From UHGV virus genome UHGV-0198106: a stretch of DNA of 64,000 nt; one strand, given 5' to 3'. A program made the position numbers and the translations under genes. The stretch comes from a virus. Below are positions 24,987-50,576 of the stretch, in pieces; position 1 is the stretch's first letter, and each line of letters opens with the position of its first letter. The notes under the pieces were generated by a model. It saw nothing but the letters and a program-made list of their open reading frames with translations, was not told the origin of the DNA and did no database searches.

Positions 24987-26831
24987 TCAATGGGTGTGCA
25001 TCCAATTTAATCCAATCTGACAATCAGATGCTAATTCACAGTGCATGTTTAGATATTCTCCTGCTTTTTTAACACAAGTCTCAGCTATCTCTTTCATTTT
25101 ATCAATGTCGTTACGGTTGACAGACCACTGTGCTTCATCATGATAGTCAATCACCTTATTTCCTCTAATACCCTGCTGCTCTACCCATTTATTTGTGAAC
25201 AAAATGGAGTATTTCATGACAATGGCACCTGCACTCTGGAGTAGGGTATTCAGGGCTTTATGCACCATAACCTTACCAGTAGCATCCCGTCTCATGGTCA
25301 ACTTACGACCATCCACACCTTCAAGAGTACCTGTTTCTGCACGAGCTTGTACTCTCTCCAAGACAATTGGGATACAAGGGCATTCTGCTAAGAAACGTTC
25401 TCTGAGAATTTCACCCTCTTGAGCACCTCCTCCAACAATCTCTCCAATCTTAGCTGCGCCTGCCCCATATAGAAATCCATAGATAAAAGTTTTTGCATTA
25501 TCTCTAGTTGGTAGGCCAGCTAGTTTCTGATTGTGGGAATGGATATCACCTGAGAGAAGAACCTCTCGATAAGTATAAGCAGCCTCTAAGCCTTTCTCAG
25601 CCCTAAGATACTTAATTTTATCGTTCTCTGCTTTGGCTTCTTCCATCATGTCAAGGCACTCTTTCACAAGATAGTGCACTAACATACGCAACTCTAACCC
25701 AGAACCATCATACCCTAAGAATACTTCTTTACCAGCGGGTATGTAATATTTGTAAGCACCTACAGGTTTGTCTTTCTTCCCCGGCTTACCTTTCTCGTAA
25801 ATTACGTTAGTACCTTTTCGTATATAACAACCATCAGGAACAACGTTAGTAATAACGAAAGGACGAGAGTGATCACTGTCTGAGTTATAGTCAGACTCAA
25901 ACAAACTGCGACACTCGTGACCAAACAGACCACGGGAGGGAATATTAACCACGATACGATGTTTGAATCGAAAAGTCGGCGTAGCGCAGCTGTTAGCTTC
26001 TGCTGAAAGTTTACCATCTTCGCGTTCCTTTGCTATAAGTCCACTGATAAGACCTAGCCTGTGAGCCGCTACAACGCGTCTCTTAAGCAAACTCCCAACA
26101 CTCCCTAGCTCACCCCCTAGCCCTTCTTCAAGAGTCTCCTCGAGGTTTGTAGGAGCTGTAGGCCACTTGTTTGATGTGGCTAGTGCTTTCTTAATCTCAT
26201 CAAACGTTACAGGATTACGGCGATTCGGGTTTAATCCCAAACCAAATACGTAAGCCTTCATGTAATTCTTAGTCTTAAATCTAAAATGCTTTTCTAAGAA
26301 TTTCTTTATATCAGCGTCAACCATCTCGGCTGTCTGCTTTTGCTTAGCATTGCCTCGCATCCAAGCAGTATACCATGCTTGGTATGTTCCATACTTTCTC
26401 ATATCTTTCTTAATTTCGAAAGTATTCCAAGGCTTTTTAGATACGTTAAACTCTGGAGGAAGAAAGCCCTCATCCATAAGAGCTTCTTTAACTCGTGCAT
26501 CCTTCGATGGGTCAAAGTCTACGTATTCGACACAGGTGAAAGCTCCACCAATGTCCTCCCTCTTCAGCCCAACCCTATCACAATAGGCTTGAGGCCACTT
26601 CTGCAAAGCTCCAGACTTCTTAAACGGCTTCATATAAGTAGAGCCGTCTAATCTCATCTTAGGTAAGAGAGGAATTAGTTCTTTATCAATATTAACAATA
26701 ATCTCTTTAAGGAGGTGAACATACCACCGAGCATTTCTTCGGTTGAAACTCACTCCGTGCTTTGCTTGCTTAGAGATTATATCAGCGACAGTCATCTCTG
26801 TCAAAAATGGAAGAGCGTCCGGGTTGCTCAC
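24987..26831 (-). CDS. DNA polymerase, family A, polymerase domain
   Basis: Motif A DGSGLELR, motif B RDNAKTFIYGFLYG, motif C VIDYHDEAQW; GTG start; no exonuclease motifs in this ORF. Confidence 0.9.
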   Translation of the reverse strand: MSNPDALPFLTEMTVADIISKQAKHGVSFNRRNARWYVHLLKEIIVNIDKELIPLLPKMRLDGSTYMKPFKKSGALQKWPQAYCDRVGLKREDIGGAFTCVEYVDFDPSKDARVKEALMDEGFLPPEFNVSKKPWNTFEIKKDMRKYGTYQAWYTAWMRGNAKQKQTAEMVDADIKKFLEKHFRFKTKNYMKAYVFGLGLNPNRRNPVTFDEIKKALATSNKWPTAPTNLEETLEEGLGGELGSVGSLLKRRVVAAHRLGLISGLIAKEREDGKLSAEANSCATPTFRFKHRIVVNIPSRGLFGHECRSLFESDYNSDSDHSRPFVITNVVPDGCYIRKGTNVIYEKGKPGKKDKPVGAYKYYIPAGKEVFLGYDGSGLELRMLVHYLVKECLDMMEEAKAENDKIKYLRAEKGLEAAYTYREVLLSGDIHSHNQKLAGLPTRDNAKTFIYGFLYGAGAAKIGEIVGGGAQEGEILRERFLAECPCIPIVLERVQARAETGTLEGVDGRKLTMRRDATGKVMVHKALNTLLQSAGAIVMKYSILFTNKWVEQQGIRGNKVIDYHDEAQWSVNRNDIDKMKEIAETCVKKAGEYLNMHCELASDCQIGLNWMHTH

Positions 26832-31256: not shown

Positions 31257-31820
31257 TTAGTAAGACACATCACCACTGGAATGGGACATGTTACTCTTGA
31301 CGAAGTAACAATACTTGCCAAGACCTTCATTAATTTCTTGAAGCATACTCTGGTCGACAGGATAGGAGGCTAAATCGCCATCAAACTCATCCATCTTCTC
31401 GATAATACACATCAAGGTCATGCACATATCAGAGAGCATACCGTCCATATCTAGGTCAGCATTACCCTCTGAGAACCAAGCGTGAGAAAGATAATTAGCT
31501 GCTGTAGCATCCACCTTAACACAGTGGTATCGCATACGTTCAGCAATACGATCTCCTACTTGTCGTGCGTAATCTTCCAGCTCATCAAACATACCATGAA
31601 CACCCTGAAATCCTGCACCAGAGACGTTCCAGTGGTAGTTTTTAGCTTTGATATGCAAGAGTTCCATGTTAGCTTGTAAGCAGCTCAGGATGTGTTCTAG
31701 GCTGTTTCCACTAATCATACCCTGCATTGTTTCAAGGCGAGAGATTGAAAGCTCAGACCGGTCTAACACACTATAGCTGTCACGACCAATCTCAGGTAAA
31801 TCAAAGACATTCTTATGCAT
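31257..31820 (-). CDS. Dps-like ferritin-fold protein
   Basis: Dps signature NYHWNVSGAGFQGVHGMFDELED; start placed at ATG 31820 after GGAGAAAA (track ORF begins at 31868). Confidence 0.65.
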   Translation of the reverse strand: MHKNVFDLPEIGRDSYSVLDRSELSISRLETMQGMISGNSLEHILSCLQANMELLHIKAKNYHWNVSGAGFQGVHGMFDELEDYARQVGDRIAERMRYHCVKVDATAANYLSHAWFSEGNADLDMDGMLSDMCMTLMCIIEKMDEFDGDLASYPVDQSMLQEINEGLGKYCYFVKSNMSHSSGDVSY

Positions 31821-32142
31821 TTGGGTTTTCTCCATCAAGTTCAACTGAGTTAGCAACGTTACGTGCAATATTATCCATTACCTGCTGGGTAATTACGATG
31901 CAGTTCTGTGGGTCTACTGACTTAGAACGCCCCATTTCAGGGTCATACACCTTAACTCGCTTAGCAGTTGAACCTGTAACCTGAAGAACCTTCAACAGAT
32001 ATCCCTGATTACCGATAGACCAAGCAACAACATCACGATTCTTGATAAAGCGACCAAGCATATCACGATGATAAAACTGTTGCATCACCTTGGATTTTGT
32101 AATCTCTTCAGTGGGCGGGGCCACTTTACTCAAATCTAACAT
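31813..32142 (-). CDS. hypothetical protein
   Basis: Track ORF, 109 aa; 8-nt overlap with the Dps-like start. Confidence 0.45.
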   Translation of the reverse strand: MLDLSKVAPPTEEITKSKVMQQFYHRDMLGRFIKNRDVVAWSIGNQGYLLKVLQVTGSTAKRVKVYDPEMGRSKSVDPQNCIVITQQVMDNIARNVANSVELDGENPNA

Positions 32143-32451: not shown

Positions 32452-33006
32452 TCATACCATATCAGCATGATTTGTTCCACCAAAAGCTTTTGTTGGCCCT
32501 TGTTGATTATTATAGGAACCTTTCGTTGCGTAGCTATCCTCTTCCGAGGAGGAATGTTTAAAGAACTCCATTTGACCTATACGCATCCCCGGTTTAATTA
32601 GCAAAGAGTGGTGCTGTAGGACATTCTTGAATTCCATAGTTAACTGACTGCCATGCCAACCGCCATCAGCATGACCAGCGTGCATGTGCTCTAAGAAGCA
32701 ACGACCGACAGTAGACCGTAGCATGAAGTCACAGCTAATGTTGTCTGGAAGGTTGAATGTCTCCACTGTATGAGCTAAGAAACACTCACCCGGTTTGATC
32801 ACCAACCCCTCCTCTGGAATCATAACCTCATTGAAGTTAGGGGACTCTTTAGCAGAGATATCAACAACCCCATTAGCTGCACCTTCCATCAGAACGCGAT
32901 CTCCAATACGAACATCAATGCTGGAGGAATTAACAGCTGAGTGTGGTGCATCAATAACACCATCGTCAATTAATTTATGTAACTCTGGGCTTCCTAGTAA
33001 ACTCAT
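32452..33006 (-). CDS. dcd: dCTP deaminase family protein
   Basis: Collinear with the Dcd/dUTPase fold: IDVRIGD, IKPGECFLAHTVETFNLPDN, GWHGSQLTMEFKN, IKPGMRIGQMEF. Confidence 0.85.
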   Translation of the reverse strand: MSLLGSPELHKLIDDGVIDAPHSAVNSSSIDVRIGDRVLMEGAANGVVDISAKESPNFNEVMIPEEGLVIKPGECFLAHTVETFNLPDNISCDFMLRSTVGRCFLEHMHAGHADGGWHGSQLTMEFKNVLQHHSLLIKPGMRIGQMEFFKHSSSEEDSYATKGSYNNQQGPTKAFGGTNHADMV

Positions 33007-33027: not shown

Positions 33028-34314
33028 TCACATTTCAAAAGAGAAACCGCGACCCGATTCATCGGCAAACCGAACTGTACGGGTTTGAGGTTCTAATACT
33101 TCAGGATTATTTGAAACAAATTGATCAGCGCGACTCTCTACCATATCTTCATCAGTCCACACAGCCCTAACAGGTGCGTTGATATCACCAACAGCAAAAC
33201 CCTGACCAGAGAACTGACGTGCGCCGACAGTAAAGCCATTTGATCGACCACGAGAAGGTCTAGCCATCCATTGCTCCATAGAATCGCTTGTAATACCAAG
33301 ATCTTCAAAAGATATTCTACGAGTAGGGCTTACTCTTCGTGACTCTTGTGCTCGACGCATTGTAGGGGATACAAAAACCCCTTCAATTGCATTGTGTCGG
33401 TTAGAGTCTTCTTCTCGACCAAGCAGATCACCACCCGTGTTAGTTGTTAAATTTGTCAACCCTTCAGACCAATACGCATGAATCTGGCTAGAGCTATGAA
33501 TGCTTGACATTAACTGAATCTCTTCATAAGGGATCCCAAAGAATCGACTCATGTCACGATTAACACAATAATGAGCACTTGTTGTATCCTCAATAAGAGC
33601 AACCTGACCTCGTTCGTTGACCAGATGACTAACTGGTTGAGGTGTAGGAAGGTATCGAGTTTGTGCCATATATTGATATGCAACAGATGGATCGGAGAAT
33701 CTTAATACCTGTGAATTAGGCCACTTCTTGTGAACATACTTGATTTCACGACTAGAGACAACCACTGGACAAGGAGAGGTCATAGCCAAATATCCCTGGG
33801 GGGTCATGAACAGCTTGTCAAGAGTCATCGCACCACGGCACATCATAGGAAAATTATCCAATACCTCTTCAATAGAAGTAGGATAATTAAACATGAATTG
33901 GATACGAACCCCATTCCACTGAAACTCAATAATATCAGTGAATGTTAGTTGAGAAGTCCCAGTATACGGCTCATCTGTAGATTCAGCAAGAAGGGATGCA
34001 TATTCAATATCTTGTGATTCTAGCCATTCCTTCACATTACTTTCAACCTCTCGTCCGAGATCTTGCCACTGGTCATGGTGGATAAAGGTATTTCGAGTTC
34101 TTGGGGCCTGTCCTCTGACAATAAAGATATCAATGTCATGAGGTGCTCTGTTATTAAGAACAGCATCACGAACAGCCCCACCAGTGATGATGGGACAAAT
34201 ACAGTCTGGAATCAAGTTGTTGTTAATCAACTGTTCAATGAAGTGACGACCAACAGTGATATCAGGTTGTTGAGCAACCTTATCTGCAATTCGGTTAATC
34301 GGGATAACAATCAT
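33028..34314 (-). CDS. class-II (CCA-type) nucleotidyltransferase with Arg/Ser/Gly-rich tail
   Basis: Head-domain motif IITGGAVRDAVLNNRAPHDIDIF; C-terminal ~150 aa low-complexity RS/RG-rich; start trimmed to ATG 34314. Confidence 0.55.
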   Translation of the reverse strand: MIVIPINRIADKVAQQPDITVGRHFIEQLINNNLIPDCICPIITGGAVRDAVLNNRAPHDIDIFIVRGQAPRTRNTFIHHDQWQDLGREVESNVKEWLESQDIEYASLLAESTDEPYTGTSQLTFTDIIEFQWNGVRIQFMFNYPTSIEEVLDNFPMMCRGAMTLDKLFMTPQGYLAMTSPCPVVVSSREIKYVHKKWPNSQVLRFSDPSVAYQYMAQTRYLPTPQPVSHLVNERGQVALIEDTTSAHYCVNRDMSRFFGIPYEEIQLMSSIHSSSQIHAYWSEGLTNLTTNTGGDLLGREEDSNRHNAIEGVFVSPTMRRAQESRRVSPTRRISFEDLGITSDSMEQWMARPSRGRSNGFTVGARQFSGQGFAVGDINAPVRAVWTDEDMVESRADQFVSNNPEVLEPQTRTVRFADESGRGFSFEM

Positions 34315-34315
34315 T

Positions 34316-34873
34316 TTACATTTTCCAATATAATGAAGGTGGGTCGTAAGGGTCAAATCCTGTGAGTTCACACAAGTATTTATAAACCTTAACAGTTAAG
34401 TTAACGTCCTGTTCACAATAAGTAAACATATCCTCAGTGAAAGCATCCCATGCTTCCTCTTGCTCACCGTAATCACCTTTAAGTTCCCCTAAGAACTCAC
34501 CCCATTGCTTCAAGCCATGACCTCTTGGGCCATGTCTAGGGTCGCCTTTCGGATACTCAGGACTGTCACCAATACGGTCAGGTTTAAGATATCGACTAAG
34601 ACATAAAGTGTCGAAGACGTTAAAACGATAGTCGATCAGATTGGGATACATTTTCTTCAGAGCACAAAGGTCGAAGTCAATAATGTTATGACCTAAGATC
34701 ACATCAGCTTCTGTAAGCTTACGAATCCCATCTTCAATTTGGTGAGGCCGATAGCCCCACCTTTCATCAGTTTCAACATCGAAAATATAAATACACCACA
34801 CTTTGGTTATATCATCGTATAGTGCATTACTCTCGATATCGAATGCAAACACTTTCTTCTTTTTCTTTACCAC
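34316..34873 (-). CDS. 3'-5' proofreading exonuclease (DEDDy), separate gene
   Basis: Exo I FAFDIES, Exo [11 protein letters not shown], Exo III YCEQD; GTG start. Confidence 0.8.
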
Positions 34874-35121: not shown

Positions 35122-35747
35122 CAAAAGTTCAGATATGATCGCTACTCATACCCCGCACCACTACATGCTGCTTACAGTTTCCTGCAAGATCGGACTATCT
35201 CACCACACAAAAGTGTGCCTACTGCTTCCATTTAAGTCAATGTTAATGACACCACTTGGCTGTACTTCGGTCTTATGACCACCCTAGTCTCTGCACTTTC
35301 TAAACAGTCTTCCGTTTATAATTAAAGAAATTGTAACCTCTCTGAACATTCTCAGCGTTGGTTACCCACTCCAAATTAGTTGCCACGTTATTATCTCTTG
35401 TATGGTCCAAGTGATCAATAAATGGATAATTGTGAGGGTTAGGAACAAAGGCAATAGCTACTAGTCGGTGCATGTAGAATTTCTTTCTTTGTCCCGTATC
35501 CATTCTTAAGTAAACAGTTAAATATCCGTTGCCATGTCTGGCCCCTAAGATAACATTGCCTGTTTTACTATTATAAATCGTACCATCAGGCCGCACCCAA
35601 TAATTAGATGCACCTTCTATTTGTTTCTCTTCCATAAAGCCTCCTTGCTCTTGGAAGACTGTCTAGCTTAGCTCAGGATTGGCATATCTTTCGACTTAGC
35701 TTTCCCTGAGTTCAATAGGTTTTACATGCGCAGGTTTGTTTACGCAT
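35122..35747 (-). mobile_element. group I intron candidate carrying an HNH homing endonuclease ORF
   Basis: About 620 nt insertion between helicase motif H3/H4 region and the C-terminal exon; contains a complete HNH ORF; boundaries approximate. Confidence 0.5.
35300..35635 (-). CDS. intron-encoded HNH homing endonuclease
   Basis: HNH_3 motif IDHLDHTRDNNVATNLEWVTNAEN with N-terminal YWVRPDGTIYN module. Confidence 0.7.
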   Translation of the reverse strand: MEEKQIEGASNYWVRPDGTIYNSKTGNVILGARHGNGYLTVYLRMDTGQRKKFYMHRLVAIAFVPNPHNYPFIDHLDHTRDNNVATNLEWVTNAENVQRGYNFFNYKRKTV

Positions 35748-38669: not shown

Positions 38670-39866
38670 TTAGTAGTTTACAACAGTGCCATCATTCAGG
38701 GTAAGGCTATTAATCTGCAACACACGACCAAGCTGACGATCACTAATTGGTGCGTTCCAACCAGAGCGGTAGAAGTTACGACCGCAGAAGAAAACAATTA
38801 CATTACTTGCTACAGTTGAGCCGTTTTCAGGATGCTTGATGTTCGCGATATAATAACCACGACGCAGGGTACGACGGGTGATTGGGTTGATCTCTAACCC
38901 TTGTTCTTCCACTTGCATTGTTTCAGGAACAGGTTCAGATGACTCTTCAGCAACTGGCTCAGCTGTCAATGCAAAGTTCTCATCATCCGCTGAGTCAGCA
39001 AACTCAACTTCCGACTCTTCAACAGGCAGTTCGTAAGCAACGCGGTAGTCAGGCTCAACACCAGAGAAGCTCTTAACAAACTCAACAATGTTGTGAGTGT
39101 AAGTTTCCAGAGTTGTACCAGTCAGACCCGGAGCAGTGTTTACTTCCAGAACCCAAGCGTTAGAGCCTTTACTAATCAGGTCAACAGCGCCGAAGTTTAA
39201 ACCCAGAGCAGACACAGCTTTGTGGGCTTGAATCAGAACTTGATCAGGAGGAGCTTCAGTGAAAGAGTTAGAGTAAACCCAGCCAGTGTGATGGTTGCGA
39301 ATATTTTCACGATAGCTTTCCAGTTCACGATATCCATTACGACGAATCTTCTTCTGAACGTAAGTGATAACACCTTCGAACACATGAACACGCCATTCAC
39401 GACGCGGACCTTGAATACCTTTCGTATACAGAGGAGCACTTGCAGTACCTTCTCCCGGAAGACGTACGGTGATGCCTTCACCAGAATGTCCAGTTAAGGT
39501 TGCACGCTCATAAACGATTTCGTTTTGGTTCCAGCTCTGAGCTACTTCACGATCAACGGTATATTCAACAGTCTTAACTCCAGCCAACCGTAATGCGTTA
39601 AATGCTGCAACTTTATTAGCTGCTCGGTTCAGGGCTTCAACAGGGTTCAGTACGGTTGCACCACCAAAGAAAGAAGCATCATAACGACGGTTGCCATAGT
39701 TTACAACAATATCACCGGCTCGAGAACGATAACGAGAGTTTTCTGATACCAGAGACATTACGTTAGCATTCAGTCGAAGTTCCTGAATCTTAGCATTAAT
39801 AGCAGAAGTAAGTTCACGAACTGAATCAGAAGGGCCATAAGGGAGAACACGGATACGAGTAGTCAT
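38670..39866 (-). CDS. ATP-grasp family ligase
   Basis: ATP-grasp C-terminal motif GAVDLISKGSNAWVLEVNTAPGL; acidic linker plus extra C-terminal domain. Confidence 0.75.
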   Translation of the reverse strand: MTTRIRVLPYGPSDSVRELTSAINAKIQELRLNANVMSLVSENSRYRSRAGDIVVNYGNRRYDASFFGGATVLNPVEALNRAANKVAAFNALRLAGVKTVEYTVDREVAQSWNQNEIVYERATLTGHSGEGITVRLPGEGTASAPLYTKGIQGPRREWRVHVFEGVITYVQKKIRRNGYRELESYRENIRNHHTGWVYSNSFTEAPPDQVLIQAHKAVSALGLNFGAVDLISKGSNAWVLEVNTAPGLTGTTLETYTHNIVEFVKSFSGVEPDYRVAYELPVEESEVEFADSADDENFALTAEPVAEESSEPVPETMQVEEQGLEINPITRRTLRRGYYIANIKHPENGSTVASNVIVFFCGRNFYRSGWNAPISDRQLGRVLQINSLTLNDGTVVNY

Positions 39867-39868
39867 TG

Positions 39869-40093
39869 TTAGATACCTTTAAGTTTAAGAATTTCGTTAC
39901 GAGTTTTTTGAATCTGAGCTTCAATTTCGAAGTAGTCATTGAACGCATCGTTCTCTACTTCATCGGATGGTGCATCAATCAGACCGAAAGCGAACGGATA
40001 CAGCTTTCGCTGCTCCGTTACTAATTCGATATGAACTCCTATGTAATACTGTAGGAGAGTAATCTTCGGTTTCTTAGGAACCAGATTTGACAT
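39869..40093 (-). CDS. hypothetical protein
   Basis: Track ORF, 74 aa. Confidence 0.35.
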   Translation of the reverse strand: MSNLVPKKPKITLLQYYIGVHIELVTEQRKLYPFAFGLIDAPSDEVENDAFNDYFEIEAQIQKTRNEILKLKGI

Positions 40094-40307
40094 GAGGTTC
40101 TACCTTAATGCCTTTGATTTTTACATAATCAGCAAGTACGTTATTGATCACCGTTGGGAACGGAACCTCAACCTGTGTCTCAAGTACTTGACCAATACCA
40201 GCTTGCATCCACTTCTGGATTGCACGAAGGTTGTCACATCCTGTGCTCGTCATCGGGATACGTCGAGTAGTTACAACATTATCCAACATCATCTTACGAA
40301 TTTCCAT
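40074..40307 (-). CDS. hypothetical protein
   Basis: Track ORF, 77 aa; overlaps neighbour. Confidence 0.35.
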   Translation of the reverse strand: MEIRKMMLDNVVTTRRIPMTSTGCDNLRAIQKWMQAGIGQVLETQVEVPFPTVINNVLADYVKIKGIKVEPHVKSGS

Positions 40308-40312
40308 CTGAT

Positions 40313-42343
40313 TTAACCTCTATTCAATGAACATTTAGGAGAATTACAATAAACTTGATTCATAGAACCAAGCGTACAACTTTCAGCATCGCGCCACGGA
40401 ATCTGCTTAAAACACTCTGAGCAGTATCCGAGGGTTGACCACATGGCTTTGGTGAAGTCAGTGCTTCGATTTCCGTCGAAGCTGACAACAGTTTTGCGGA
40501 GAGCTGTTCGTGATTCAGGAAACACACCTGCTTTCTCAGCAGGTTCCTCCTTTTTTGGCTTAGTCGAGATTGCAAAAATACTGTTGCCACGTTTCTCAAC
40601 ATAAGCATCAACAACATCTTCCAGAGTGATACCTGTTTGTTTCGCTGAGGAGGGTAATACGGTCATACGACCAATCATTTCCTCAGTTACACGTACAGCA
40701 ATTTCAGGACGACGGGTGTTTGTTGTATCTGTTGCTTTAATCCAGACATAACCATCTTTGATCGTAGCATTAGACACTTTCTTCTTTACTTCTACAGCAC
40801 AGTCTTTACAGATATCTTCACCACGGAGGCGGCTAAGTTCTTCATCGAACTCATTCTCTGTTTTAACCTCACCACAGATTTCACAAACACCGATAGGAGT
40901 CTCCTCCTCTTCTTCCTCTTTAGGTTTAGTCAACCTTTCCAGACACTCGGGATGCCAGTAGCACTGATATGCGAAGACTGCTTTAGGTGCATCCTTCCAA
41001 TCAATGTGCTTGTCACAACCACCACAATCACCATGAGAGTGTGCTTCCCAGAATTTACGAGTGATAGTAACGCCATTCTTGTTGACGAAACTATCATTCA
41101 TGTCAAAAGGGATATCATCATCGAAGTCAGCAGTAGTTGACTCAGGCTCCTTTTTCTCCAGAGATGGGTCAACAAAACGACCTGCTGTGATTACTAAACG
41201 AACCATAGCATCGACTTCGGAGATGCAGGATACTGTCCCACGGTAAACAATTTTAGGGTCTTTCAGGGCATCCTGATAAGCCTTAATGTCTACGTTATGA
41301 ACATCACCTTCAATGTACTCTTGAGATTTCTCATCGTAGATATAACCAATCATCTTACCACGAGAAGGAACAGCACCAGCAGTTGCATAGGGAACAAATT
41401 CATGTGGTGTGATTTCCACAGTCATGTCGCGGCGAATATCAATGTTTCGATCGCTTGCGATTTTGTTTTGACTTACCACTGCGTTTCTTCGACGAACGTC
41501 TGCCGCTGTCACTCCCGGCTTCGTGTCGTAAGGATTGCTTGTACTGCTTTTTGAGGAGCTTTGATAATTGCTTTGGCTGTAGTTGTTCGAGTAGTAACTG
41601 GCCCAACGATTGACTACCGTAAAAACCGGAAGCTCATGGGCGACCTCTTCAACCAGAGTCATGCTGTTGTTTGACATATCAAAGATATATTCTGTACCAA
41701 CTTTACATTCAAAGTGCTCATCAATTCGGTTTTTGTGAGACTTAGAACGCTTCAGAATCCACATCAGCATATCTTCTTCAGAAGCACCAAACCAATCTCT
41801 ATTACAACGTGCGAGATGGAAAGGACGCTCTTCGTTACGAATAATATGAAGACGGTTATCAGAAGCATCATGCCAGATTAAGGTGAAAGCACCATCCAGC
41901 TTTTGAATAGTCTCTGCTGCACCAATAGTGTTAATAGAGTAGCAGATGTTCTCACTGTCTACCTCGAAGTTTTTACTGTCAGGTAACAGATCTTGGTCCA
42001 TCAAGGTTCCGTTATGAACCAGAGTGATGTTACCGTGTTGGAAAGGATGGGCGTTCTTGGCGTTAACTGCACCTTTCGTTGCATGACGACTGTGACCAAC
42101 AATCCATGAAGGTGCTACAGTATAAGATGTTTCACCAGTGGTGTGCTTCTTATACTCATCTTGTAGGATGAATGCGAAAGAGGGAAGAGCTTCCTTATAA
42201 GTGAAGACTTCCTTAGTACTTTTACGCTGACCAAAGATACCAGAGGAATGTTGTCCTCGGAATACCCCAGCATAAAAGAGTTGGTTGAATACGTCTAAAT
42301 CGGTGCTTGACAGATTACCGCCAGCTAATACGATGCCGCAAAT
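40313..42343 (-). CDS. class-II (Ntn) glutamine amidotransferase domain protein with Cys-rich C-terminal region
   Basis: GATase motifs CGIVLAGG, GHSRHATKG, NAHPF, HNGTL are encoded upstream of the first ATG/TTG (track start 42004); frame is open to a TAG at 42347-42349; only start placing Cys at position 2 is ATT 42341-42343, 8 nt after AGGTGGA. Confidence 0.6.
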   Translation of the reverse strand: MCGIVLAGGNLSSTDLDVFNQLFYAGVFRGQHSSGIFGQRKSTKEVFTYKEALPSFAFILQDEYKKHTTGETSYTVAPSWIVGHSRHATKGAVNAKNAHPFQHGNITLVHNGTLMDQDLLPDSKNFEVDSENICYSINTIGAAETIQKLDGAFTLIWHDASDNRLHIIRNEERPFHLARCNRDWFGASEEDMLMWILKRSKSHKNRIDEHFECKVGTEYIFDMSNNSMTLVEEVAHELPVFTVVNRWASYYSNNYSQSNYQSSSKSSTSNPYDTKPGVTAADVRRRNAVVSQNKIASDRNIDIRRDMTVEITPHEFVPYATAGAVPSRGKMIGYIYDEKSQEYIEGDVHNVDIKAYQDALKDPKIVYRGTVSCISEVDAMVRLVITAGRFVDPSLEKKEPESTTADFDDDIPFDMNDSFVNKNGVTITRKFWEAHSHGDCGGCDKHIDWKDAPKAVFAYQCYWHPECLERLTKPKEEEEEETPIGVCEICGEVKTENEFDEELSRLRGEDICKDCAVEVKKKVSNATIKDGYVWIKATDTTNTRRPEIAVRVTEEMIGRMTVLPSSAKQTGITLEDVVDAYVEKRGNSIFAISTKPKKEEPAEKAGVFPESRTALRKTVVSFDGNRSTDFTKAMWSTLGYCSECFKQIPWRDAESCTLGSMNQVYCNSPKCSLNRG

Positions 42344-42422
42344 TTTCTAATCCACCTGAAGGGTAAACCCTTTCATCTAATTAACCTTTAAATTGTGCCC
42401 CTTTATCAGAGGCACCCATTGA

Positions 42423-43526
42423 TTACAGCGCTTGCTCTAACTGATACTCCAGATGATCTGGAATGTACCCTGTGATATTATTATCAATATGGCCTGACTC
42501 ACGAAGTAAGTCAAAGATCTCACGGATACATTGCTCTGGTGCAGATCGTACAGTAGATAGATCTGTTGTATTAAGCATGACCAAAATCTCTTGGTACAAG
42601 TTGTTAGCATTCCCTCGGACATATCCAAGGTATCCATAGAAGTCTGAGATAAGACGTAAGTCAACAAGAACTTCTCCACTTGGGTTGGTTCGACGTAAAC
42701 GAATACGACCAGACTGCTCTACTTCATGAGAACGGCAGTACAAAACATCACGGGCCATACAATACCCTGAATGCAAATCCAATTCATCCAGACTGTAATC
42801 TAGTGGAAGATAAGGAAGCATTGGGGCAAATCGTACAGTATTTAAATGCTCGATAAACTGATCATTGCTCATCTCTGCGTTATCTAAAGCCAGCTTCTTC
42901 AACATTAAGAAGCGGTTAACCAGATTGAGAAGTTGACCACGTTTCCACTTAGGCTCACTGATACGGAACTCGATCGAACCATATTGGGCAAGTGGCAGAA
43001 GGTTCAGAGATGTATATTTATCCCATGAACGAACCAGACGGTTGAAGAACTCTTCATCGTCGTAGTTAAATGCGTCAGAGGCATTCATTACCTGTGCTTG
43101 TACCACTGCGAAAGCAGGGCAGAAGTTGCTACGGTAACGATGGTAGCCTGAACACTTGAACAACATCTTTTCATAGAAGGTCCAAGCTAGAATGGTCTTC
43201 TTGAGGATATTACTATCAGCATCCCTCATATCCATATGAACGTGAGTAGAGCAACGCCAAGTCCCCTCGGCGTGCGATTCAGCTACTGCTTCACTCAGGT
43301 TGTTGATAGCGTCTAACAACTCCTGTCCGTTGTAAGGTCGTGAACATACCATTTCACAACCGTTACGCAGGGAACCATCCTCTGTGCAATCCCACATATC
43401 TGCTTCGATATGTTCAGAACCTTCGAGTTCAAGTTCAATACCGACACCGCACTGAAGTGCAATTGAACTATGCGCCTCAGTTAAACGACCTTCTCGATAT
43501 CCAAAAGTTTGCGCTACAGTTGTCAT
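42423..43526 (-). CDS. glutamine-synthetase-fold carboxylate-amine ligase-like protein (amidoligase candidate)
   Basis: N-terminal GVGIELELEG resembling the G-I-E-x-E motif of GCS2/YbdK-type ligases. Confidence 0.45.
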   Translation of the reverse strand: MTTVAQTFGYREGRLTEAHSSIALQCGVGIELELEGSEHIEADMWDCTEDGSLRNGCEMVCSRPYNGQELLDAINNLSEAVAESHAEGTWRCSTHVHMDMRDADSNILKKTILAWTFYEKMLFKCSGYHRYRSNFCPAFAVVQAQVMNASDAFNYDDEEFFNRLVRSWDKYTSLNLLPLAQYGSIEFRISEPKWKRGQLLNLVNRFLMLKKLALDNAEMSNDQFIEHLNTVRFAPMLPYLPLDYSLDELDLHSGYCMARDVLYCRSHEVEQSGRIRLRRTNPSGEVLVDLRLISDFYGYLGYVRGNANNLYQEILVMLNTTDLSTVRSAPEQCIREIFDLLRESGHIDNNITGYIPDHLEYQLEQAL

Positions 43527-44140
43527 AACGAATCCACCAACGTAATATTATAATTGCTAAGGTTTTCAGAGATGTGATGAAAATGTTCCAGAAGTCGCAT
43601 CGGTTGCTGACCGTAAGAGTCACGAGGTGCTTCCAGATCTACCTGACCTACCCGTGCACCTTTATAATGCACTTTACCATCTGTAGGGTTGATGTAAATG
43701 TAACGAGTAACCAATCCATCAAATTCAGGATTGAATAGACTGTAAACCATTTCCCCAGAGATAGAACGACCAACCCCCGGAGCATTTCGAATCTTGTTAC
43801 CCACCAAACCCTTCGCTCTCTGACGAACAGGGTTGATATGAGTCCAGCTTACAGTGTTACCATTATGGAACAGATAGCCAACATCAGGTGATTCAAGAAT
43901 CAAGGTTGGGTCAAACACTGGAATATTCATCGTAGTGTTTCGGAGAATCCCGTTCTCATTCTTGTACCATTGCTCTACAACAAAGTACAGAGCTTGTTCT
44001 GCTTCATGTGAGAAGTCGTCGCTGCGGAAGTTACCTCTCTGCTCAACACCAATCACAAAACAGGGAAGGTTGATGTTGCCTGCTCGTTTAGCAATCCATG
44101 TGCCACTATAGTAATGAGAAAAATCAGCTACTAAGCTCAC
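43523..44140 (-). CDS. hypothetical protein (amidoligase-operon member)
   Basis: Track ORF, 205 aa; 4-nt overlap with upstream gene. Confidence 0.45.
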   Translation of the reverse strand: MSLVADFSHYYSGTWIAKRAGNINLPCFVIGVEQRGNFRSDDFSHEAEQALYFVVEQWYKNENGILRNTTMNIPVFDPTLILESPDVGYLFHNGNTVSWTHINPVRQRAKGLVGNKIRNAPGVGRSISGEMVYSLFNPEFDGLVTRYIYINPTDGKVHYKGARVGQVDLEAPRDSYGQQPMRLLEHFHHISENLSNYNITLVDSL

Positions 44141-44149
44141 GATAACCTC

Positions 44150-44956
44150 TTATGCTACCTGAAGGAGTTTGATCTGCTGGTCCGCTTCTTTAACGTTATT
44201 ACCGTTAATAATTTCGTGAAGCTTCTCAATCGGAAGACGAGAGTGCAATGCCATCAGAGTGGACATATCACACTGCTGAACAACCTTGTCAACCTGATCG
44301 TAAACAAACTTACGATTTTCACGATCGTTAATCCAGAAGTTGGACAGTGAACGGTATTCAATACCGTAGTCCTTATAACGGATTGCAGATGCTTTGCCAT
44401 AAAGTTCTTTACGGCGAGTATCTTTATCCATGATAACTGCTGGGAGTGATAGGAAGTAGTCACACAGCACACCCAGCATCATCTGAGTTTGCAGAGTGAT
44501 ATCCAAAGAACCAACTACGCCAAGATGTACGTGACCACCGGCAGTACGAAGCCCCTTGTTCTGAGAAGTCGGGGATGGATTCTTCTGACCAGTGAAAGCG
44601 TTGAAATCAGGAGTACATCCGAAGATGAACGCTGATTCATTGAAAGTCTTCATCTCCTCTTCAGTGAAGATGTGAGAGCTAACACCCGGAGCTGTTTCCA
44701 TGTCCAGTTTGTTCAGGACTCTATTGGTGAGATCAATACCACGTTGCATGTTATCATTAAACGCTTCAAAACCGCTCTGTGGGTCAATATCAAACTCAGC
44801 CAATACGTTGTCCTCTTGAAGACGAACATCCTTAGCCAGAGCGATCTTATCGTCCTTAGAGCAGCCTAGAAGACCGGCTACAGAGGTGATGATTCCGTTG
44901 CTAGTACGAACGAAGAGCTCAGGGTCGCTGCCTATTAAGAATTTGCGCTTAGTCAT
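44150..44956 (-). CDS. second GS-fold amidoligase-like candidate
   Basis: N-terminal FLIGSDPELFV resembling the G-x-[DE]-x-E-[LF]-F motif of GS-fold ligases; weak. Confidence 0.35.
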   Translation of the reverse strand: MTKRKFLIGSDPELFVRTSNGIITSVAGLLGCSKDDKIALAKDVRLQEDNVLAEFDIDPQSGFEAFNDNMQRGIDLTNRVLNKLDMETAPGVSSHIFTEEEMKTFNESAFIFGCTPDFNAFTGQKNPSPTSQNKGLRTAGGHVHLGVVGSLDITLQTQMMLGVLCDYFLSLPAVIMDKDTRRKELYGKASAIRYKDYGIEYRSLSNFWINDRENRKFVYDQVDKVVQQCDMSTLMALHSRLPIEKLHEIINGNNVKEADQQIKLLQVA

Positions 44957-45920
44957 TGTAATACTCCACTAGTTCAGAAAAGAGAGATGAGATTGTGTTA
45001 CCAACTTCTTCAGTCGTAAGGCCAGAAGTTGGACCAGTACGCTGAATCAATCGGGCTGTAAAGTTTTGTACTGTAATGTTTTCCAACTTATTGTCTATTG
45101 TTTCACGTTTGTGACCATGACAGCTGGACCAGAGTCTTAACCACTCTGACATTGTTTCATACTCGTCCGGGTCTTGATCTTTAGCACGAGCAAATCTTCG
45201 TAAGGCATCTTGGTTATGGTTGCGAACATAACCGTCCTTGTTGTCACCAACACCGAAGGGGTTTTGAACCCACACTTGTTTCGTGTATTCATCAGAGTCT
45301 ACAACCAAAGGAAGGAATGCTGCTGCTGACATATTGTTGTTAATAACAATGGATGTGTTCTCTCCACTCCCATTGGAGGTTCCTCGTTGAGACCATCCAC
45401 CGAAGAAGTCTCGACCTAACCCAGCTAACACTAGAGCAATTCCGATGCGTTTACGCTTCAGCCACTCTTCCCTGTCTTCAATTCCTTCTGATAGGAAATC
45501 CATTCCACGATACTGCCCTTCCAGAATACTACGGAAGAGCATAAGTCCTGTGAAGATTTGATCTGCTGGATGCTCACGGAGGTTGACAGCAACACTATTC
45601 GCTGAAGTGATCGTAAATACATCACGATAGCAAGACATAGAGTTCATAATGTCTGCTGTTTCAACCAAGTTCTTTTCAATGTCAGATGCAGCGAGACCAT
45701 GAAAAGAGTGAGTCCAGTAATTCAACATCTCCAATTGCAAGTTGATATCACGGTTGAAGCGTTTATGAATCCCTTCTTCCATTACAGAGTCGCCATTAAT
45801 GTCATTTATGACTTGGCCTTGCATGTAGTTGTGAATACCGAAGCACCCACGACCTAAGAACTTCTGTTCCCCTAAATCTTGTTGAAGATTCAGAGGTACG
45901 ATCGTTGTGGAGATTGACAT
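44949..45920 (-). CDS. hypothetical protein (amidoligase-operon member)
   Basis: Track ORF, 323 aa; overlaps downstream gene by 8 nt. Confidence 0.45.
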   Translation of the reverse strand: MSISTTIVPLNLQQDLGEQKFLGRGCFGIHNYMQGQVINDINGDSVMEEGIHKRFNRDINLQLEMLNYWTHSFHGLAASDIEKNLVETADIMNSMSCYRDVFTITSANSVAVNLREHPADQIFTGLMLFRSILEGQYRGMDFLSEGIEDREEWLKRKRIGIALVLAGLGRDFFGGWSQRGTSNGSGENTSIVINNNMSAAAFLPLVVDSDEYTKQVWVQNPFGVGDNKDGYVRNHNQDALRRFARAKDQDPDEYETMSEWLRLWSSCHGHKRETIDNKLENITVQNFTARLIQRTGPTSGLTTEEVGNTISSLFSELVEYYND

Positions 45921-45930
45921 AACTAACCTT

Positions 45931-47130
45931 TTATTTTCCTAAAAATAATCCGCTCATAATACCATCCCATTCAGAGGATGGAACCACTGAATACTCCGAA
46001 CTTTGGTCCAGAGTTCCACTACTAAATCGCTGAATAATGTTATAGATGTTGAACATATCCTTAGTCTCGATACGATTACCGTAGAGTAATTTGTCAGCTG
46101 TTCTTTCACCTTTAGATACCCGACGAACAAAGTTAACCAGAAGGTTGTCACATTCAAGTGTTTCTGATCCACTCTTTACTAAATCGGGGTGCATCACCGG
46201 CAAGAACATTGAGTTATTAACTCGTAAATCTGATGTTTCGTTATTTTCATAACTAATCCATTTAAAATCTTCATCACGGAAGTGACCACAACCATGATTG
46301 TACGACTGCTGACGCCAAGGCACTTTAAATGCTTCAGTATACTTATCAGCCATACCAACTGTAAACAGTGATGCTGGGAAGATACAAGCATCCCAATCAT
46401 TACCAACCAGAGTTGTTTTTGTTTCTCCTAAGAGGTTAGTGTAAGTGCTAACCATTCGTGAGTAAACATAGGCCTGAAGGATTGTCCAGCCTTCAACCAA
46501 CCATTTATGAAGGAAGGTTTCAACCTGACTCTCTTCATCTTCACAATAGAAGGTTCGGTCTAACATCAAATAGAACAGACAACGGTCAGCATGGACATTC
46601 TCAGTTGCTACACCCATAAAACCTTTTTCGTGCCAGCGTAAACAGGAGGGACGGTCTTTGTCCACAAATGCTTCCATAGCTTCCAGTACAGCACGAGGTG
46701 TGGTTTGATACTCAGGGTTTTTGTCATTCCAACGTTCAATGTTATTTTTAAGCTCACCTTCCTGATCAATATTACCCCAACCCAACCCTTTGGTTACAGG
46801 CTTTTTGTCACGATAACTCAGAAAACCTAACATATCTAAGTGGGTTCCAGAGTTCCAGATATGTTTAATATCGCACATATCCATCTCGTCACTTAACAGG
46901 CAGTCTTGCCCATCTGCACTACGAATATTAGATGCTTCGCTCCAAACCTTAACGTGCATATTCCACCCACGAGTTGCCTCATAGGTGTTAGGTTCAAAAT
47001 ATTCATCGTATTTGCCATCATCACCTTCATCAGCACCACCGTTATAGTTGCGGAGCTGAAGGAATCCATAGCAAGGAGGATAAACCGTTAAAACATTACC
47101 TTCAGTATCTTCTAATGTTACTGGAAACAT
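45931..47130 (-). CDS. hypothetical protein (amidoligase-operon member)
   Basis: Track ORF, 399 aa; Cys/His/Trp-rich. Confidence 0.45.
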   Translation of the reverse strand: MFPVTLEDTEGNVLTVYPPCYGFLQLRNYNGGADEGDDGKYDEYFEPNTYEATRGWNMHVKVWSEASNIRSADGQDCLLSDEMDMCDIKHIWNSGTHLDMLGFLSYRDKKPVTKGLGWGNIDQEGELKNNIERWNDKNPEYQTTPRAVLEAMEAFVDKDRPSCLRWHEKGFMGVATENVHADRCLFYLMLDRTFYCEDEESQVETFLHKWLVEGWTILQAYVYSRMVSTYTNLLGETKTTLVGNDWDACIFPASLFTVGMADKYTEAFKVPWRQQSYNHGCGHFRDEDFKWISYENNETSDLRVNNSMFLPVMHPDLVKSGSETLECDNLLVNFVRRVSKGERTADKLLYGNRIETKDMFNIYNIIQRFSSGTLDQSSEYSVVPSSEWDGIMSGLFLGK

Positions 47131-49940: not shown

Positions 49941-50456
49941 CTATTTAGTTAACCAAAAACCTTTCGGCTTTTTAACAACACCAAGAATCCTACATCTCTT
50001 ATGGACAGCCGAATCACTAACACTCAGTAACCTCCCTACTACATACACGGGGTAAATGTCTATTAAAGACTGAAGAGATTCTTTTGTTATTTCAAACCGT
50101 CTGCTATCTAATTTGGCACAAAGCTGTGAGCAAAACCTTTGGTTGCTATTCTCTGAAACAAGGTAAATCTCTCCACAAAAAGAACATAACCTTTCTTCCA
50201 TGACAGCCCCATGATGGTGCCTGCTATGCTCCTCATAAGTCATGATTTCTAAATTAGATGGTTCGTTGTTTAACTTATTCTCATCCTTGTGATGAACCAC
50301 TAGGTCAGAGTTCAGTTCGACACCGTAGAAATTTTGAGCAACATATCTATGAACATACACCTTTCCAGCTTTATTGGCCATAGGGTGTGTTGGTTGGTAC
50401 ACATACAAATAACCAACACCTTTATCAACAACTGCTTTACTTAGATCTAGCTTCAT
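49941..50456 (-). CDS. HNH homing endonuclease
   Basis: HNH_3 motif VHHKDENKLNNEPSNLEIMTYEEH plus C-terminal Cys cluster. Confidence 0.7.
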   Translation of the reverse strand: MKLDLSKAVVDKGVGYLYVYQPTHPMANKAGKVYVHRYVAQNFYGVELNSDLVVHHKDENKLNNEPSNLEIMTYEEHSRHHHGAVMEERLCSFCGEIYLVSENSNQRFCSQLCAKLDSRRFEITKESLQSLIDIYPVYVVGRLLSVSDSAVHKRCRILGVVKKPKGFWLTK

Positions 50457-50464
50457 AATACCTC

Positions 50465-50568
50465 AAGAGCTCTTAGCGAGGGTGACAGGACTCGAACCTG
50501 CATACTCCATTTACTTCTTTAACGACCGCTTAGAAGGCGGGGAAGATACACCCTCACTAAGAGCTCTC
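50465..50568 (-). other. structured element: 20-bp inverted repeat enclosing tRNA-like T-arm and anticodon-like hairpin
   Basis: Arms aagagctcttagcgagggtg / caccctcactaagagctctc; on the minus strand GCAGGTTCGAGTCCTGT (T-arm-like) and CCGC-CTTCTAA-GCGG (UCU anticodon-like loop); no canonical D-arm, so not called as tRNA. Confidence 0.3.
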
Positions 50569-50576
50569 GTTAATCC

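Follow-up and report, generated by a model that had tools for sequence, protein, structure and literature searches.

Does a phage gene whose product carries the signature turn of tRNA CCA-adding enzymes in fact encode such an enzyme? The question is raised by positions 33028–34314 (minus strand) of UHGV virus genome UHGV-0198106, of which a stretch of 64,000 nucleotides was analysed in full (the window). An earlier note, made from the letters alone, had read this gene as a phage nucleotidyltransferase (NTase) of CCA type with an Arg/Ser/Gly-rich tail, and had proposed tRNA 3'-end repair or RNA tailing during infection. Our analysis supports the assignment of the NTase to the class II (CCA-adding/poly(A) polymerase) branch of the Pol-beta-fold nucleotidyltransferases. 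Judged from its sequence, however, the protein would not be a canonical CCA-adding enzyme. The gene and its parts are:

33028..34314, minus strand: NTase gene, 428 codons plus stop, ortholog of phiEco32 gp73 (phi32_73)
33445..34314, minus strand: folded N-terminal domain, approximately residues 1–290, in which a family-specific alpha/beta region comes after a class II-like head
34117..34188, minus strand: motif A, residues 43–66 (ITGGAVRDAVLNNRAPHDIDIFIV), with the hG[GS] nucleotide-binding turn and the DxD metal carboxylates
33028..33444, minus strand: C-terminal tail, residues 291–428 plus stop, predicted disordered, lysine-free and specific to the Kuravirus lineage
33205..33384, minus strand: Arg/Ser/Gly-enriched tail core, residues 311–370, net charge +4, 25 of 60 residues being R, S or G (p = 1.3e-4)

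Class II affinity and family of the nucleotidyltransferase

Both halves of the head motif named in the earlier note are present, GGAVRD at residues 45–50 and DIDIF at residues 60–64, and the class II pattern for motif A, GGxVRD(x8-12)DxD, is matched by GGAVRD together with DID (60–62). Across 26 aligned homologues, reaching down to 21% identity, the motif A residues G45, G46, R49, D50, D60, D62 and F64 were invariant. The Pfam PolyA_pol head model (PF01743) matched the NTase with E = 2.3e-4 and 21.9 bits, against a gathering cutoff of 23, and the match spanned only residues 43–127, corresponding to profile positions 3–85 of 126. The same model matched 18 of the 26 family members, among which the NTase of the window had the best E-value. 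When the family profile was compared with the PDB, CCA enzymes were found at E = 0.0025, again confined to motif A, which was also the sole stretch confidently aligned to E. coli Cca and PAP I. A search of the NTase against NCBIfam gave no match.

An AlphaFold2 (AF2) model built on the 26-sequence alignment was confident for approximately residues 1–270 (predicted local distance difference test, pLDDT, mostly >90) and unstructured from residue 290 onward. In a Foldseek comparison of this model with the PDB, all 40 of the 40 best matches were class II CCA- or A-adding enzymes (E ~1e-5), and scores did not exceed 7.7 for TENT5, CdnE, TUTases, Pol beta/X, Rel and MenT. By the AF2 model the fold was closest to solved class II enzymes, and the class II head-type affinity in the earlier note is borne out by the PolyA_pol score, the PDB profile match and the structural ranking alike; placement in an unrelated NTase family, which that note had named as the outcome that would count against it, was not what was found. 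A CD-NTase (cGAS/DncV-like) identity was rejected on lower fold scores and the lack of a defence-system model match (a PADLOC scan returned none), and identities as an antibiotic NTase (ANT/Lnu), a MenT-like toxin or a RelA/SpoT-like enzyme were rejected on lower fold scores and the lack of supporting context. For toxins of the MenT/AbiEii type, which extend tRNA acceptor ends, the structural match was far weaker than for class II, and the NTase has neither an antitoxin partner nor a defence context.

The family is small and stands apart. When 1.84 billion representatives were scanned exhaustively with HMMER, 31 clusters were retrieved, all of the same family, and a second search, made with the family profile, revealed no link to any other family; the distant members are only 274–320 amino acids long. 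The second-best viral structure match was Aeromonas phage phiAS7 gp03, a protein of 203 amino acids in phrog_1614 (Foldseek E = 1.3e-6, TM 0.53 on target), and the NTase also matched the phrog_1614 profile itself (E = 7.7e-8, residues 42–157). Homologues of the phiAS7 gp03 type were found by tblastn in 177 phage records, mostly Autographiviridae. These head-only NTases (phrog_1614; phiAS7 gp03, Klebsiella phage fHe-Kpn01 Gp22) have ~180–200 amino acids and differ from the NTase of the window in having neither the extra C-terminal region nor the tail. One head-only NTase of this type was toxic on expression in E. coli (PMC7291057).

The minus-strand open reading frame (ORF) covers 33028..34371 and opens with GTG at 34371, with an internal ATG at 34314 from which a protein of 428 amino acids with the N-terminus MIVIP would be made. 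Since M1 is invariant among the 26 diverse homologues and this ATG comes one base after the TAA (34316–34318) with which the upstream exonuclease gene ends, ATG 34314 was taken as the real start, and the span given in the earlier note is correct. The reading of the DNA as that of a phage was likewise confirmed: the 3.3-kb stretch around the gene shares 91–94% nucleotide identity with the Kuravirus phages SR02, ES17, SU10 and others of Escherichia, and the window is from a phiEco32-like Kuravirus (Gordonclarkvirinae) of E. coli. Full-length Kuravirus orthologs of the NTase occur in ~70 records at 76–89% protein identity, among them phiEco32 gp73 (85%), which is annotated 'nucleotidyltransferase'. 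They are the same full-length protein with the same tail, flanked in the same way by the PolA exonuclease subunit and dCTP deaminase, and differ from the NTase only by indels and substitutions in the tail, where the window copy lacks an 18–25-amino-acid segment common to most orthologs.

The gene family is already catalogued and is a divergent form of the class II type. The NTase matched phrog_12715 over its whole length (E = 7.2e-230; residues 1–428 on profile positions 1–453 of 457) and is 100% identical to catalogued protein P0001, labelled 'classII CCA-adding enzyme-like protein', so that the CCA-type label of the earlier note is an existing annotation found again from raw sequence. As the NTase has stood in GenBank, RefSeq and PHROGs under essentially that label since phiEco32 (2008), the gene itself is no discovery; it is nonetheless fixed in the replication operon of a whole phage subfamily, with remote head-only cousins in many T7-like phages. 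The domain label PF26128.2 exists as a precomputed label on long Kuravirus-type proteins only.

Specificity motifs and the C-terminal tail

Class II enzymes are defined by motifs A–E, in which RRD senses the ribose 2'-OH of the nucleoside triphosphate (NTP) and EDxxR templates C and A. In our comparison set of five class II sequences (E. coli genes and PDB sequences), RRD and EDxxR were both visible after alignment, and the third-carboxylate strand carried an invariant Glu in all five. The invariant residues of the phage family, over the 26 homologues, were M1, G45, G46, R49, D50, D60, D62, F64, Y117, I128, Q139, P156, Y193 and K197; outside motif A, not one invariant Arg, Asp or Glu was present in this alignment. 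The signature residues of the alpha/beta region are Y117, D/E127, Q139, P156, D/E190, Y193 and K197, and in comparison with class II enzymes the NTase has an extra long helix-strand-loop insert with invariant W97 and Y117.

Alignment of the family profile to the single sequences of E. coli Cca and PAP I with hhalign recovered motif A only, with probabilities of 5–12%, and two registers were obtained that conflict downstream of it. The register given by Pfam, hhalign and MAFFT placed IEYASL on the Glu-bearing class II strand and VRIQFMF on FTINA. The register based on the secondary-structure order of the AF2 model and on the alignment with phiAS7 gp03 placed the hairpin at residues 125–146 on the class II hairpin, with Q139 at the third carboxylate, NFP at RRD and R(D/E)xxY at EDxxR. 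In the phiAS7 protein the place of Gln139 of the Kuravirus family is taken by Asp, and a D..IN.A string similar to motif B is retained. In neither register was motif B, RRD(xxxN), found, its place being taken by NFP (secondary-structure order) or WNG (MAFFT/hhalign). Motif D, EDxxR, was equally absent from both, with no conserved Glu-Asp pair and no templating Arg; the family signature at this place is [R/K/T][D/E]xxYxxxK (R189, E190, Y193 and K197). Because the outcome was the same in both registers, the absence of RRD and EDxxR and the failure to recover an invariant third carboxylate are robust to the alignment uncertainty.

Pfam scans of the NTase and of the 26 family members detected no helical neck, body or tail tRNA-binding domains. 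The class II tRNA nucleotidyltransferases and PAP I (PF01743; 1MIV, 3H37, 1OU5, 4WBY, 3AQL) have these domains together with RRD, EDxxR and the third-carboxylate Glu; the NTase has neither the domains nor RRD or EDxxR, and an invariant Glu on that strand was not recovered in its family in either register. Of the profile search that the earlier note had suggested, the PolyA_pol head half gave a match just under the cutoff, and the body-domain half gave none. The step from a class II head motif to a CCA-type enzyme engaged in tRNA 3'-end repair is not supported, given the missing RRD, EDxxR and RNA-binding body and tail and the existence of homologues of only 274–320 residues. The CCA label overstates what is known, since of the CCA enzymes the family has retained the catalytic turn alone, with its own invariant residues in place of the specificity motifs.

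The tail described earlier as an RS/RG-rich low-complexity region is indeed enriched in Arg, Ser and Gly, which make up 42% of residues 311–370 vs 22% of the whole protein (hypergeometric test), but it is only loosely RS/RG-rich. The dipeptides are few (RS 1, SR 3, RG 2, GR 3), no RS or RGG-type repeat arrays were found in the tail, so that the enrichment is compositional only, and the last 58 residues are net acidic. Residues 291–428 contain no lysine at all, and the pLDDT of the AF2 model fell below 50 at residues 290–342, 344–393 and 407–428. Among 17 Kuravirus proteins, mean identity was 76% in the tail, with indels, vs 88% in the head; the tail holds conserved short motifs and a middle of variable length. 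In the more distant homologues of the 26-sequence alignment it was absent or unrelated, which would make it a lineage-specific appendage outside the conserved function.

Possible activities in the replication operon

The NTase gene lies between two genes of DNA replication and nucleotide metabolism:

34316..34873, minus strand: 3'-5' exonuclease subunit of family A DNA polymerase, the upstream partner (Pfam DNA_pol_A_exo1, E = 4e-8)
32452..33006, minus strand: dCTP deaminase (Dcd), the downstream partner (Pfam DCD, E = 1e-31)

The NTase is translationally coupled to the exonuclease subunit, the single base between stop and start having been noted above, and the dCTP deaminase start follows 21 bases past the NTase stop. 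In phiEco32, too, the genes for DnaB-type primase/helicase, exonuclease, NTase and Dcd follow one another in this order, and they still do so in metagenomic relatives at 24–30% identity. The phages of this subfamily, the Gordonclarkvirinae, are reported to show a remarkable resistance to restriction-modification systems and to have no known modification pathway (BASEL study, PMC11990801). In the window, CCWGG occurred 7 times vs ~97 expected, GATC 134 times vs ~287, and 6-mer palindromes overall 688 times vs ~966, and CTGCAG and CACGTG had zero occurrences. The sites remaining in the window number 9 for EcoRI, 30 for EcoRV, 8 for EcoKI and 93 for EcoP1. Since EcoRI, EcoRV and EcoKI sites are present, site absence does not explain the resistance.

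The explanation that we favor, with a probability of roughly 45%, is that the NTase is an active, template-independent enzyme of class II descent that adds nucleotides to the 3'-OH of a nucleic acid with a specificity other than CCA addition. This Kuravirus core protein is a phage-specific and strongly diverged descendant of the class II head domain that retains the GGxxRD turn and the DxD aspartates. Its specificity would have shifted away from CCA with the replacement of RRD and EDxxR by the family-invariant P156, Y193, K197 and Q139 and with the loss of the domains that measure tRNA. The disordered tail, R/S/G-rich and then acidic, may be a Kuravirus-specific addition that probably binds nucleic acid or a partner outside the conserved catalysis. 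Activity is likely because G45, G46, R49, D50, D60 and D62 are invariant over deep divergence, and RNA is a likelier substrate than DNA because all nearest structural relatives tail RNA. Several points weigh on the other side. The position of the third carboxylate is occupied, depending on the register, by the invariant Q139 or by the variable E104 (E/P/S/T/Q), so that two-metal catalysis on a 3'-OH is not assured. The residue equivalences beyond motif A are inferences. Finally, the strict place among replication and nucleotide-metabolism genes and the loss of RRD fit a role on DNA or deoxynucleoside triphosphates (dNTPs) as well as a role on RNA.

That last alternative, in which the NTase would act in replication or nucleotide metabolism instead of on RNA, as an NTase for DNA 3' ends or primers or as a covalent DNA/dNTP modification step behind the restriction resistance, is possible, if rather unlikely. 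The gene order speaks for it, being kept down to ~24% identity, as does the phiAS7 phrog_1614 relative, whose gene sits between the DNA ligase and DNA polymerase genes, directly upstream of the latter; a nucleotidyltransferase is also listed among the replication-region genes of other Autographiviridae maps (PMC7693777), and the BASEL authors point to the pair of Dcd and NTase as a possible DNA-modification module (PMC11990801). The persisting EcoRI, EcoRV and EcoKI sites leave the resistance to be explained by something other than missing sites, and the loss of the RRD ribose sensor would, we infer, permit the use of dNTPs. All the closest structures nevertheless act on RNA, and we know of no demonstration of a class II-type NTase modifying DNA. 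DNA containing deoxyuridine is unlikely because the phage encodes ThyX, the strong depletion of palindromes, CCWGG and GATC speaks for DNA that restriction can reach at least in part, and gene neighbourhood in early/middle phage modules is weak functional evidence. A more specific variant is unlikely: a neofunctionalised NTase, with RRD lost, EDxxR turned into RDxxY...K and Gln at the third carboxylate, would have given up RNA tailing and would instead work on DNA or dNTPs alongside the split DNA polymerase and dCTP deaminase, one example being the addition or activation of a nucleotide moiety on phage DNA, with the conserved disordered tail serving as a tether to the replisome. If the DNA/dNTP reading were true, it would offer an explanation, lacking so far, for the broad restriction resistance of the Gordonclarkvirinae; these phages are used in phage therapy work, and the NTase is one of the few conserved enzymes that could bear on that resistance.

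Quite improbable in our view is a true CCA-adding enzyme that restores CCA on host or phage tRNAs damaged by nucleases or toxins, or matures CCA-less phage tRNAs. The near-perfect class II match of motif A, the CCA enzymes among the best fold matches and several GenBank labels agree with it, genes for RtcB and several tRNAs occur in some relatives of the group (PMC7881722), and the tRNA-like element of the window at 50.5 kb has CUA in place of CCA after the discriminator. Besides the missing motifs and domains, the head score under the Pfam cutoff and the short homologues, this explanation has against it that E. coli possesses its own Cca and that phiEco32 has the NTase as well, yet its only tRNA, a canonical tRNA-Arg(TCT), already encodes CCA. 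The CCA-less element, moreover, belongs to a replacement cassette with an HNH endonuclease that is missing from most Kuraviruses. A role of the NTase in phage tRNA maturation was rejected on these grounds, and the link to the 50.5-kb element that the earlier note had left open is not upheld. Similarly improbable is that no polynucleotide is tailed, the protein being a nucleotide-binding pseudo-enzyme, a regulatory subunit or an enzyme that nucleotidylates proteins or small molecules, with its tail docking to a partner. The invariant Gln139 at a candidate position for the third carboxylate, where no invariant acid is found, would suit such a protein, as would tail motifs conserved despite predicted disorder and an acidic, aromatic C-terminus, and a polyethylene glycol-precipitated phage preparation yielded one peptide of the SU10 ortholog (PMC4281155). 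This detection is of a single peptide from a preparation without CsCl purification (PMC4281155), however, an invariance of GGxxRD and DxD that spans deep divergence is what active NTases typically show, and D/E127 and D/E190, which are conserved as acidic, could contribute to catalysis by supplying the third ligand.

The tRNA-like element and further features of the window

The tRNA-like element that the earlier note had placed at 50.5 kb exists: the Rfam tRNA model matched 50477–50555 (minus strand) with 30.2 bits, and ARAGORN makes no tRNA call at these positions. It is a rearranged tRNA-Arg(UCU), a real structured RNA supported by covariation. Acceptor stem, T arm and anticodon arm are present and the normal D arm is missing; a helix of 3–4 bp (columns 11–14 with 39–42) encloses the anticodon arm and is followed by a D-loop-like stretch, UAAUUGGAGUAUG (G18, G19, A20-like), the D-loop-like AAUUGGA thus standing after helix 11–14/39–42. 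We collected 19 distinct gap-free copies of 83 nt from unrelated large coliphage-type genomes, the carriers including Vequintavirinae A7_1, jumbo phage 121Q (where it is annotated tRNA-Leu) and IMG/VR contigs of 15–500 kb. Standard pairing across the 19 copies was 94.5% vs 67.6% in shuffles (none of 500 reached 94.5%) and 31–50% in slid controls. Compensatory changes occurred in all four helices, and in 15 of the 21 pairs both partners varied. The anticodon loop reads CUUCUAA in 18 copies and the anticodon UCU in all 19, and CCA is encoded in 11. In the window copy, the flanks 50467–50476 and 50556–50566 lengthen the acceptor helix to 18 bp. Among 185,579 bacterial and archaeal genomes only two matches were found, both on contigs of metagenome-assembled genomes, and no description of this rearranged tRNA-Arg(UCU) was found within the collection of papers searched.

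Kuravirus-like phages, of which others besides phiEco32 have the NTase too, are reported to carry a single tRNA-Arg(TCT) (PMC9965538). In the window, a cassette of 624 bp (49947–50570, minus strand), which comprises the rearranged tRNA and, downstream of it, an HNH endonuclease ORF at 49941–50456 (Pfam HNH_3, E = 1.6e-12), substitutes for the canonical tRNA-Arg(TCT) and the small ORF phi32_107 of phiEco32, with flanks 86–88% identical to that phage. Bas93 is the one record of those listed that likewise shows a match across the tRNA element, and an HNH gene is annotated there. This looks like a homing-endonuclease-driven replacement of the tRNA gene.

A second HNH homing endonuclease ORF (35300–35635, minus strand) lies in the core of a group I intron of 620 nt (35122–35741, minus strand) that interrupts the DNA primase/helicase gene. 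In terms of the phiEco32 protein, the insertion separates codon R512 from W513; the last base of exon 1 is U and that of the intron is G, and the Rfam Intron_gpI model scored 32.2 bits on this interval (local E = 2.6e-6), under its gathering score of 50. The exons match phiEco32 gp75 at 99% identity, and the insert is missing from most Kuraviruses. The family A DNA polymerase is split into the free exonuclease subunit (34316–34873, minus strand, 185 amino acids) and a polymerase subunit (24987–26831, minus strand, 614 amino acids), the two genes lying ~7.5 kb apart as in phiEco32, with a phage thioredoxin (30730–31008) and a Dps/ferritin-like protein (31257–31868) between them. By synteny with phiEco32 genes 80–88, the block at ~38670–47130 (minus strand) should hold a cluster of ATP-grasp, glutamine amidotransferase, amidoligase, COOH-NH2 ligase and gamma-glutamyl cyclotransferase genes.

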